Part shown: positions 61,516 through 64,000 of the stretch, piece after piece
How positions within the stretch are numbered: position 1 is the first letter of the stretch
Layout of the letters: the number at the start of each line of letters is the position of its first letter
Assembly (NCBI GenBank): GCA_963668625.2
Contig: CAXXKA010000004.1
Span: forward strand, 64,001 to 128,000
Origin: an uncultured candidate division Zixibacteria bacterium
GTDB taxonomy: Bacteria > Zixibacteria > MSB-5A5 > UBA10806 > 4484-95
Length of the DNA stretch: 64,000 nucleotides
Reading direction: 5' to 3'
The notes under the pieces: model-generated
What the model saw: the letters and a program-made list of their open reading frames with translations, nothing else
Told to the model about the DNA's origin: nothing
Databases searched by the model: none
Made by a program: the position numbers and the translations under genes

Positions 61516-62274
61516 TTACGGATTAATAGATACACCAATATTAAGTAAGAAACCTGAAAAATCGAAACACTCGTTTTCTAAATCTCTAATAGTTGTGTTG
61601 CTAAGATAAAGCGAGCTTGTTTTATCTCCAGTGAAACTGAAATCATCACTAACAAGATATCTGTAGCCAAAAAATATTTTTGCCGGCAGAAAACTGAATA
61701 ATTTCCCTCTTGTGCTGAATCCAGCAACAACTCCGAATCCCTGAGCGGTATATGAGATATTATTCGATTGATTGGACAAACTGGCATATTCTTTGGAATC
61801 GAACTTCAATTTACCGAATCCATAACCCGCGCTTAATTCCATAAAGATAGATTTATCCGAGGTCAGGGCATGGCTGCCTTTTACATAAGGAAACCAGAAA
61901 TTATAGGATGTTTTAACTTTAAGATACTTGCTGCTGCTTCCATAATCATCCCAATAATCAGAATAGGTGTGCGATTCCTTGTTATTACCAAAAAGATACG
62001 ATAAACCCAGCCCCAGGAACATACCATTTTTCACTTCATATTCTGATTCAATAAATATAGAGAATCCCCTGGTAATATTAGACGATAAAGGAGAATGATA
62101 TGAAGTATATTCGAATGGATAAATGTTATAAGCGTTTTTGGTATAGTCATAGCTATAGATTGAATAACCCGTACCGACATTGAATATCAGCTTATCGAAT
62201 TCAAATGCGGTTGCAGTATTTGATAAAATCAATGAGTATATTATAACGCTGAGGATAACTATTGCCTTTTTCAT
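61516..62274 (-). CDS. Probable outer-membrane beta-barrel protein
   Basis: Signal peptide; alternating aromatic/Gly strands; GYRYL and DFSGFLLNIGVS C-terminal strands. Confidence 0.7.
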   Translation of the reverse strand: MKKAIVILSVIIYSLILSNTATAFEFDKLIFNVGTGYSIYSYDYTKNAYNIYPFEYTSYHSPLSSNITRGFSIFIESEYEVKNGMFLGLGLSYLFGNNKESHTYSDYWDDYGSSSKYLKVKTSYNFWFPYVKGSHALTSDKSIFMELSAGYGFGKLKFDSKEYASLSNQSNNISYTAQGFGVVAGFSTRGKLFSFLPAKIFFGYRYLVSDDFSFTGDKTSSLYLSNTTIRDLENECFDFSGFLLNIGVSINP

Positions 62275-62311
62275 TATAACTCCTATGATAAAAGTCTACT
62301 CCAAATTTCAG

Positions 62312-63325
62312 TTATCTGTTTGCTAACACAAAGTTAGGGAAATCTTCAAACACCCAATTATTTTTCAAGGTGTCATAGATTATTCCCAGTAATTTTCTGG
62401 CTGTGGCAATGATAGCCTTACCGCTGCCACGACGGTTTTTTATACGATTGTAATATTTACTCAAGTAATGGTTATATCGTATGGCAACAAGCGTACACTG
62501 CACCAGTGTAGTCCGACCAATCTTAGAACCACGCTTGGTAATCCGACCATGATGCTGAATCTCGTTTGAATTGGAAACTCGCGGCACTACGCCAAAATAT
62601 GAGGCCAATTTATCTTTGTCCGAAAAATCAGCAACATCACCAATTACCGAAAGCAACACTGTAGCTGATTTGCTGCCGATTCCTTTGATGCTGGTCAGGT
62701 TCTTATGCCCGTTCAACTTGCGACCCTGATCCTCTATCTGTTTGTCCAGCTTTTTTATCCCCTCATTCAAACTGCGAATCTGATCAACCAATACCTCAAG
62801 CTCAACAGAAACAACCTCATCAAAATTCATCTTTAGAACCCGCTCCAAACTCTTGTTGCTGGAGTAGGCCTCCTTTTTACTCTTGATACCATGATGATTG
62901 AGTATGTTGTGTATTTTATTCTTCAAAGCTGTACGTAACTTGACCAGCTTGTCCCGTGTCCCAACAAGTGAACTGATCTGCGCTTTATCTTTCGTCTTTA
63001 ATCGGGCTTTCGGCAACATGTCTTTGCTCATAAAATAGGCTAAGTTCCTGGCATCGTTTTCATCCGTCTTACTGACTGATGATTTGATTATCTCAAATTT
63101 GTTCGGATCGACGACAACAACTCGCTTGACCAAATGCGATATCTCATCAACGAAATAACGAGTGTTGCCAGTGGCCTCAACCGCTACACAATCCGTCTTT
63201 TTTAATCCTCGTTTAAATTCCTTTAGATCCTTTAGCCGATACTCCTTGATCCTCTCCCGACCACCGGCTGTCAGGTAACACACGGTCAAACTGTTTGTGT
63301 GAAGGTCTACTCCTAAGTACCTCAT
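62312..63325 (-). CDS. IS110-family DEDD recombinase/transposase
   Basis: YLGVDLH, VEATG, KTDENDA, SIKGIG, YFGVVP..SNS, ITKRG, AIIATARKL; GGAG before ATG 63325. Confidence 0.95.
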   Translation of the reverse strand: MRYLGVDLHTNSLTVCYLTAGGRERIKEYRLKDLKEFKRGLKKTDCVAVEATGNTRYFVDEISHLVKRVVVVDPNKFEIIKSSVSKTDENDARNLAYFMSKDMLPKARLKTKDKAQISSLVGTRDKLVKLRTALKNKIHNILNHHGIKSKKEAYSSNKSLERVLKMNFDEVVSVELEVLVDQIRSLNEGIKKLDKQIEDQGRKLNGHKNLTSIKGIGSKSATVLLSVIGDVADFSDKDKLASYFGVVPRVSNSNEIQHHGRITKRGSKIGRTTLVQCTLVAIRYNHYLSKYYNRIKNRRGSGKAIIATARKLLGIIYDTLKNNWVFEDFPNFVLANR

Positions 63326-63334
63326 CTTCTTGCT

Positions 63335-63540
63335 CCATTCTATGGTTATCACTGGAGCAGACTCTCTGTCGGCGCCTACCAAACTCCTATTCAAGGTCTT
63401 TGCCTTATGGTGGCAATTCGGTTACAGGTCTGATTAATCTCCTTTACGAGGTCTGGCCTCAAGCATTCAGTTCAGCCTATAACCTATCCGCTCCAGTTAG
63501 AAATTCATTACCGAAGCTCTAACACCAACAGAATAGATTA
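63335..63540 (-). ncRNA. Putative IS110 bridge/seek RNA
   Basis: Located in the 5' non-coding end; contains AAAGGAG and TGTAAC (target-matching) plus ATAGGAG and ACCAT (donor-matching); boundaries approximate. Confidence 0.6.
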
Positions 63541-63577
63541 GCAAGATGCTTTTATCGTACCATCTCCTTTTGATTAT

Positions 63578-64000
63578 TTATAGGCTAAATGATATACTCG
63601 TCCGGGCGTAAATACCGCTGAGATCGACAGTCAAACCGTTAAGATACTGCCAGTAGGCTGAACCATCATGATAATTAATGCTAATCGATTCGGTTTTAAG
63701 ATATCTGTAGCCTATCTCCCCCCCTATAGGTCGATCTTTAAGATTGATAACCGTGCCGCCTAAAGCCAACGTAAAGCTCGCGCCGGTTAATGAGAAGCTT
63801 TTGTCTTCATCATATATAGATGCGTTAAACCTGCACAGACCGATTCCCATGGTAGCCTTGAAATACGGCGAAAGGGATAGAAAAGTGAAATGATTTTTAA
63901 GAATGATATATGGGTTGACGAAAAACGCTTTAGAATTGAAAATCCCGCTTGCGGATCCCCTCGGATCGCCAGTCAGGCTATACCTCTCGGCATCAAAAAC
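63578..64000 (-). CDS. Probable outer-membrane beta-barrel protein, 5'-truncated; similar to 61516..62274
   Basis: Frame open from the window edge to TAA 63578; EIGYRYL and DLSGIYARTSISF strands resemble the neighbour. Confidence 0.65.
   Translation of the reverse strand, partial: VFDAERYSLTGDPRGSASGIFNSKAFFVNPYIILKNHFTFLSLSPYFKATMGIGLCRFNASIYDEDKSFSLTGASFTLALGGTVINLKDRPIGGEIGYRYLKTESISINYHDGSAYWQYLNGLTVDLSGIYARTSISFSL

Follow-up and report, generated by a model that had tools for sequence, protein, structure and literature searches.

How does an insertion sequence come to lie between the ribosome-binding site (RBS) of a gene and its start codon, and what becomes of the gene? The question is raised by an IS110-family element at positions 62280-63563 of a 64,000-nucleotide (nt) stretch of DNA, here called the window, from an uncultured candidate division Zixibacteria bacterium (contig CAXXKA010000004.1 of assembly GCA_963668625.2, forward-strand positions 64,001 to 128,000). 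Coordinates are positions in the window; the element and the gene downstream of it both lie on the minus strand. An original prediction, made from the letters of this stretch, held that the non-coding left end of the element carries natural guides aimed at a Shine-Dalgarno (SD) sequence, that many sites could serve as targets, and that the end of the element supplies a new AGGAG for the gene behind it. This idea has survived comparison with the other copies in the genome and with relatives in other phyla, where both RBS-type flanks and covariation of guide and target are seen. We give a probability of about 85% to the whole explanation, namely that this is an active or recently active IS110 element whose bridge RNA targets RBSs and which leaves a replacement AGGAG behind.

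Copies of the element and their insertion sites

A genome-wide blastn search finds 11 copies of the element, each full length at 1284 base pairs (bp) including the right-hand AGGAG, and no partial copies. Eight of the 11 are identical and three have one base changed, so that identities are 99.9-100%. Homology among the copies starts at a flanking AAGGAG and stops at the right-hand AGGAG, which confirms the predicted boundaries: AGGAG stands at both junctions of the window's copy (63568-63564 and 62284-62280), and the insertion lies in the RBS of the gene that begins at 62274. The left flank is the host SD sequence (63564-63571), comprising the left part of the target and an AG core; it reads [N][A/T]AAGGAG in 11/11 copies. 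At the other end the terminus ATAGGAG (62280-62286), equally constant, provides the downstream gene with a replacement SD sequence. An ATG follows it after 5 nt in five copies, 6 nt in five and 7 nt in one. Every copy is co-directional with the gene downstream.

In the window that gene (61516-62274, ATG at 62274) encodes 252 amino acids and has no Pfam match; a DNA search of five related genomes found no match to it. Nine of the 11 downstream open reading frames (ORFs) are 116-758 codons long and the other two 34 and 39. Their products include M14 and M32 peptidases and proteins with glyoxalase, SnoaL, BNR and FG-GAP domains. The host 16S rRNA tail bears the canonical anti-SD sequence.

The genome has 851 [A/T]AAGGAG sites. 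Besides the 11 that are occupied, 286 are unoccupied and RBS-like, in keeping with the predicted abundance of potential sites, and 554 are neither. Random draws from the 851, 35% of which are RBS-like, would give 11 out of 11 RBS-like sites with p = 9e-6. The occupied sites also have a T at +1 more often than unoccupied RBS-like sites do (9/11 versus 59/286; Fisher 4e-5). For one locus an empty counterpart exists. The M32 peptidase gene has an orthologue (76% identical) in two congeneric genomes, where it is preceded by AAAAAGGAG, 6-7 nt and the ATG, with no element; this is an orthologous empty site, distinct from the same allele. A protein search at E <= 1e-30 found the element in none of 60 related genomes and turned up one distant homologue of 30% identity. 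Insertion is specific for site and orientation in all 11 copies, and no target-site duplication is seen beyond a shared core, which in relatives is reduced to AG or GGAG.

In three sequencing runs of the same organism the element is collapsed into a single contig of 1290-91 bp. The depth of the collapsed contig (62280-63569) is about 13-14 times that of its flanks, set against 11 assembled copies. The excess could represent unassembled copies or free circles.

The transposase and the ends of the element

The transposase gene (62312-63325) encodes 337 amino acids with DEDD RuvC-like and Transposase_20 domains. Pfam matches are PF01548 (5.7e-13, residues 4-144) and PF02371 (5.4e-22, residues 208-292). 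Residues D7, E50, D88 and D91 are invariant across 24 homologues. Together the two domains and the invariant DEDD residues point to membership of the IS110 family. The non-coding left end comprises 238 nt; only 32 nt separate the stop codon from the right terminus. A 7-bp subterminal inverted repeat lies 7 nt inside the left end (63550-63556) and has a perfect partner near the right end (62287-62293). By eye, this repeat seems shorter (4-5 bp) in several relatives.

A structured RNA in the left end

The left end folds well as a single sequence (z = -4.8). An alignment of 47 distinct left ends was used to define the structure. RNAalifold run on these sequences missed one helix, P2, and proposed some doubtful pairs, so base pairs were counted on a structure named by the authors. 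Four elements of it are supported: the outer helix P1, the helix P2 that closes the target-binding loop, and two homologous hairpins, SLa and SLb, one in each loop. Over 33 pairs, 91.7% of cells are paired, compared with 28-50% when the partners are slid by 1-3 columns, and compensatory changes occur in 17 of the 33. The covariation score of 0.303 (0.161 for shuffled alignments) was reached in 0/500 shuffles.

P1 is formed by 63487-63496 and 63352-63361 (91.5% paired, 6/10 pairs with compensatory changes), and P2 by 63472-63484 and 63420-63433 (87% paired, 5/11 compensatory). Hairpin SLa in the target loop (63447-63461) and hairpin SLb in the donor loop (63392-63407) are both 100% paired, with compensatory changes in 2/5 and 3/5 pairs, respectively. 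A 5' stem-loop that precedes the guide loops (63496-63523) comes from the single-sequence fold; in relatives there is a variable hairpin at this place. The covariation supports the view that the upstream non-coding region forms a bridge-RNA-like structure, a left-end RNA with two internal loops.

Three of the proposed guide segments had been seen to follow a repeated AGACCT. The motif is real. SLa, P2 and SLb each have it as their 3' strand; the pattern reflects helix strands and carries no guide signal.

Two side observations concern P1. The right end of the element (62293-62303) has a near copy of the P1 5' strand, so the P1 3' strand is complementary to the right end as well. The near copy is conserved in most relatives and missing where the right end is very short. 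Contigs of runs X1 and X2 also include a form of the element that skips 56 nt within 63321-63378, and with them the P1 3' strand and the RBS and ATG of the transposase gene. Its depth is 12.7 in X1 and 8.6 in X2, compared with about 50 for the element. No copy with this skip is found in the assembly, and the form may be an artefact because its shorter side has only 21 letters.

Guides for the bottom strand

Two unpaired segments of the RNA are well defined as guides. The target guide, AAAGGAG (63439-63445), follows SLa and has the same sense as the left flank and core, which makes the bottom strand its pairing partner. This segment had been proposed as the left target guide, and the comparison of elements upholds the proposal. 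Over 73 sites with 15 distinct guides, guide and left flank agree at 3.93 of 5 variable positions, compared with 2.56 ± 0.21 when guides are permuted, and the observed agreement was reached in 0/5000 permutations. Positions -7 to -1 agree at 0.84-1.0 each, and position -8 at 0.29. Naturally retargeted examples include TTCAGGAG, AGAGGAG, CAAGGAG, TGAGGAG, GTGGAG and the non-SD ATATCCAG.

The donor guide, ATAGGAG (63384-63390), consists of the 7 nt that follow SLb and has the sense of the right end. In 41/42 elements it is identical to the terminal 7 nt of that end. Variants change on both sides, as with ATGGGAG in five elements and ATAGAAG in one, and its identification as the left donor guide stands. 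Both bottom-strand guides contain AG. The loop segments of the RNA covary with target and donor, more weakly for the top-strand guides described next.

Guides for the top strand

The right-hand guides of the original prediction fared less well. It took TGTAAC (63426-63421) as the guide for the right side of the target. This hexamer sits in the 3' strand of the covarying helix P2, in a paired stem, and AAAGGAG and ATAGGAG are unpaired, so the proposed check of stems against loops came out for two of these three segments. A better candidate, and the probable one, is J (63462-63471), as we call the variable strand on the 5' side of the target loop; it would guide weakly to the top strand over AG and the spacer between SD sequence and ATG. 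Pairing to J averages 3.82/6 at occupied sites and 2.62/6 at unoccupied RBS-like sites (p 0.002), an excess found in only one of nine registers tried; this p-value and that for the T at +1 are optimistic because the register was chosen after the data had been seen. Across the family the effect is modest, with 4.44/9 positions paired versus 3.87 ± 0.22 for permuted guides (p 0.008). There is no sign that J recognizes the ATG, as pairing at +7 to +9 does not exceed that of permuted controls.

The corresponding 5' strand of the donor loop, J' (63408-63419), probably guides pairing to the outermost bases at the left end: with its register centred on 63409-63415, it covaries with the sequence of that end (4.03 versus 3.80 ± 0.05; 0/3000 permutations). 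Two occurrences of ACCAT had been offered for this role. The first (63411-63407) overlaps J', so the place was roughly right; its own register shows no covariation (p 0.35), and the guide is better placed 2-4 nt further 5'. The second (63346-63342) lies 3' of P1, outside the conserved RNA, and is discarded. For handshake guides, a comparison by eye of the base that follows each GGAG with the flank's first base gave a mixed picture.

The DNA that encodes the target guide (63439-63446) is itself a perfect 8-nt target. In the bases after it, a count by eye finds only about 1/6 positions paired with J, and this poor pairing might protect the element from insertion into itself.

Related elements across phyla

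At E <= 1e-20 there are 4786 homologues of the transposase, the best 120 of which are all at least 65% identical. From species-representative genomes, 80 related loci with 56-68% protein identity were collected; they span Planctomycetota, Acidobacteriota, Calditrichota, Pseudomonadota and others. Most have the same right terminus; 12 lack the terminus motif within 110 nt, and five have a flank too short to read. The loci give 62 distinct readable right flanks. In 51 of these an ATG occurs 4-10 nt past the element end, and in 54 any start codon does. Insertion between SD sequence and start codon is thus the rule among the relatives, as it is in the 11 copies here.

The same arrangement is found on a complete plasmid of Tardibacter, where a guide GAAGGAG is matched by a flank GAAGGAG. 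In that element (2242-2244 of the plasmid locus), and in a second one, L098, the stop codon of the transposase gene is contained in the terminal ATAGGAG. The new RBS and the end of the transposase gene then overlap, an arrangement like that of translationally coupled operons.

An element from Desulfuromonadaceae, L096 (about 1291-1500 and the right junction), looks like a case of natural retargeting. Its target guide ends in TCCAG and the left flank matches; the target is not an SD sequence, and the right end is still ATAGGAG. Left flank and right end have only AG in common, which fixes the core as AG. In elements of Acidobacteriaceae the left side reads AAGGAG and the right side TGGGAG.

Some further sequences touch on this group. 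Elements of Chitinophagaceae (L061) and Pyrinomonadaceae (L067) have ATAGAAG termini and an identical right flank, and in L061 the J strand matches the right flank over 8-9 nt that directly adjoin the core. Four further runs from wetland and rhizosphere metagenomes (X4-X7) contain 28-64% of the element's sampled words. A contig of X4 holds a variant guide region with four substitutions and two indels.

How insertion and expression might proceed

These features suggest the following scheme. The 238-nt left end would encode a bridge RNA with two pseudo-symmetric internal loops, each with a small hairpin. In the target loop AAAGGAG would read the SD sequence, aided by J. In the donor loop the right terminus would be read by ATAGGAG, and the outermost left-end bases by the strand 5' of the hairpin. 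Judging by analogy with known relatives, the RNA would be made, a circle with a promoter at its junction would form, and a DEDD/Ser recombinase would carry out the exchange. Recombination at the shared AG core would then place the element between the SD sequence and the spacer, co-directional with the gene. Up to the crossover, target and donor have AGGAG in common, so that an intact AGGAG is left at the original distance from the ATG.

From this geometry the downstream gene probably stays translated, and transcription of the element by read-through from host promoters is plausible. The integrated copy shows no promoter-like site on the strand of the transposase. No terminator is predicted on that strand, including the interval from the transposase gene to the host gene. 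If the ends were joined as in a circle, a -35-like hexamer (62293-62298) and a -10-like hexamer (63554-63559) would come to stand 17-18 nt apart and form a putative junction promoter; both are consensus matches. Among 40 distinct element ends, 37 reach a match of at least 8/12 to the consensus. The -35-like hexamer falls within the stretch (62293-62303) that resembles the P1 5' strand.

Comparison with known IS110-family systems

The bridge-RNA elements IS621 and ISEc21 (PMC11208160, PMC11208158, PMC11187229) resemble the present one in several traits. They have a recombinase with DEDD and Transposase_20 domains, a non-coding RNA upstream in the left end, two pseudo-symmetric loops with hairpins, one bottom-strand and one top-strand guide, a shared 2-nt core, and short subterminal inverted repeats around a 14-nt donor site. 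A junction promoter, likely here, is also described for such elements in PMC11187229. The order of guides differs. IS621 has a stem, a bottom-strand guide of 8-9 nt, a hairpin and a top-strand guide of 4-7 nt (PMC11208160, PMC11208158); PMC11187229 gives this order for ISEc21 too and the opposite one for IS1111-type seekRNAs. In the present element the positions are exchanged: the loose top-strand guide precedes the hairpin and the well-defined 7-nt bottom-strand guide follows it. The 14-nt donor site here reads 7 + CT + 5 only on the strand antisense to the transposase, so that the core on the transposase strand is AG, compared with CT in IS621. The targets are different as well: IS621 inserts into repetitive extragenic palindromic (REP) elements, and the present element into RBSs.

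Targeting of translation initiation signals is reportedly the theme of the title of a 1997 paper by Doran et al. on IS900. In the IS900 of Mycobacterium avium subsp. paratuberculosis the target motif is given, in PMC8141618, as CATGNNNNNNTCTCCTT. This is the reverse complement of AAGGAGA-N6-CATG and also falls between SD sequence and start codon; targeting of RBSs in the IS110 family is therefore already known. Accounts of IS900 further describe a gene of about 1,200 bp, compared with the 337 codons here, and a host-expression-dependent ORF opposite the transposase strand. The published motif presumably follows the orientation of IS900 itself; the IS900 transposase would then be antisense to the target gene, whereas the present one is co-directional.

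Likenesses to the IS1111 group (ISEc11, IS4321, IS5075) are a top-strand match 5' of the bottom-strand match, as described in PMC11187229, subterminal inverted repeats of 7 bp (7-17 bp in that group), a 7-nt left-end extension and a transposase of about 340 amino acids. The non-coding RNA, however, is upstream of the transposase gene here and downstream there. The transposase is 25-26% identical to those of IS4321/IS5075 (66 bits), compared with 31-33% and up to 166 bits for other IS110-family transposases.

No link of a bridge or seek RNA guide to RBSs was found in searches of the literature that covered main texts; the supplementary natural-target tables of PMC11208160 may already list such elements. 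The co-directional, RBS-restoring arrangement was likewise not found in the main texts. A 2026 preprint presents 86 bridge-RNA covariance models of diverse structure, and the clade described here may be among them.

Weighing the explanations

Several results weigh against a bridge RNA programmed for RBSs. Neither the circle junction nor the empty-site joint occurs in the assembled contigs of four runs. An Rfam scan of 62000-64000 with E up to 1 matched no family. The mechanism of IS621 is not simply transferable because the guide order is reversed. The top-strand guides are weak, with about half of their positions pairing with natural flanks; among 31 distinct guides the J base opposite the G of the core is paired in 84% and that opposite the A in only 35%. 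Finally, of sites with a J score of at least 5/6, 5/16 RBS-like ones are occupied and 0/31 of the others (Fisher 0.003). Guides alone fail to explain the RBS-only distribution, so selection or some other factor must contribute, and selection against gene disruption probably does.

This last point can be pressed further, to the view that the distribution is mainly the work of purifying selection: the element would insert at any [A/T]AAGGAG, and copies that disrupt genes would be lost. Such a view rivals only the part of the explanation in which the element is programmed for RBSs, and we regard it as possible, if somewhat doubtful. The 7-nt guide does match the 554 non-RBS sites too, mean J complementarity is similar at RBS-like and other sites (2.62 versus 2.50), and the 31 well-matching non-RBS sites are all empty. 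Against it, the near identity of the copies (99.9-100%) leaves little time for more than the purging of strongly harmful insertions, and occupied RBS-like sites differ from unoccupied ones in the T at +1 and in better pairing to J.

The remaining alternatives concern how the site is recognized. The exact four-guide scheme of the original prediction, with TGTAAC and ACCAT as right guides placed after the left guides as in IS621, is very unlikely to be correct. All its strings, AAAGGAG, TGTAAC, ATAGGAG and both occurrences of ACCAT, are present on the minus strand where it read them, and TGTAAC is complementary to the flank of the window's copy with one wobble. That flank match is seen in 1 of the 11 copies, and an equivalent is found in 31% of shuffled non-coding regions, which is chance level; TGTAAC belongs to P2, the ACCAT register is surpassed by the one slightly 5' of it, and the second ACCAT is in an unconserved region. 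Recognition of AGGAG by protein rather than RNA, with the two AGGAG as a 5-bp target-site duplication, would fit the presence of AGGAG at both ends in this genome. It is hard to reconcile with relatives in which the left flank changes along with an RNA segment while the right end stays ATAGGAG, or with L096 and the Acidobacteriaceae elements, whose two ends share less than AGGAG. The IS110 family is also reported to make no duplications (PMC11187229, PMC8141618), and we consider such recognition highly improbable. It is barely plausible that the structured left end is merely a leader regulating transposase expression. It does lie directly 5' of the transposase gene, and its single-sequence fold reaches the transposase RBS; a leader would have no reason, however, to contain two unpaired segments that covary with DNA outside the RNA, one with the flank and the other with the far end of the element.

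Implications for bridge-RNA elements

The preferred explanation, an RNA-guided element that enters RBSs and rebuilds them, can be extended to the clade as a whole. Tentatively, and with a likelihood a little short of even, we suggest that a widespread cross-phylum clade of bridge-RNA elements uses the universal SD sequence as a portable safe harbour, with a 7-nt guide that is an anti-'anti-SD' and a second guide that is deliberately loose. Hundreds of sites per genome would qualify because the second target guide is loose. Compared with IS621 and IS900, the element body would be turned round with respect to the recombination site, so that entry would be co-directional, transcription would come from host promoters, and a replacement RBS would be left, which in some elements overlaps the transposase stop codon.

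For the family, the element offers an explanation at the sequence level for the decades-old observation that some IS110-family elements insert between RBS and start codon. It would be a naturally occurring bridge RNA in which one short guide does most of the work, with a loose second guide and the order of the two reversed while the RNA stays upstream; such a case helps to tell the fixed from the free features of bridge recombination. For the host, it would be a mobile element that limits the harm it does by rebuilding the signal it interrupts, and insertions of this kind inside operons may escape annotation.

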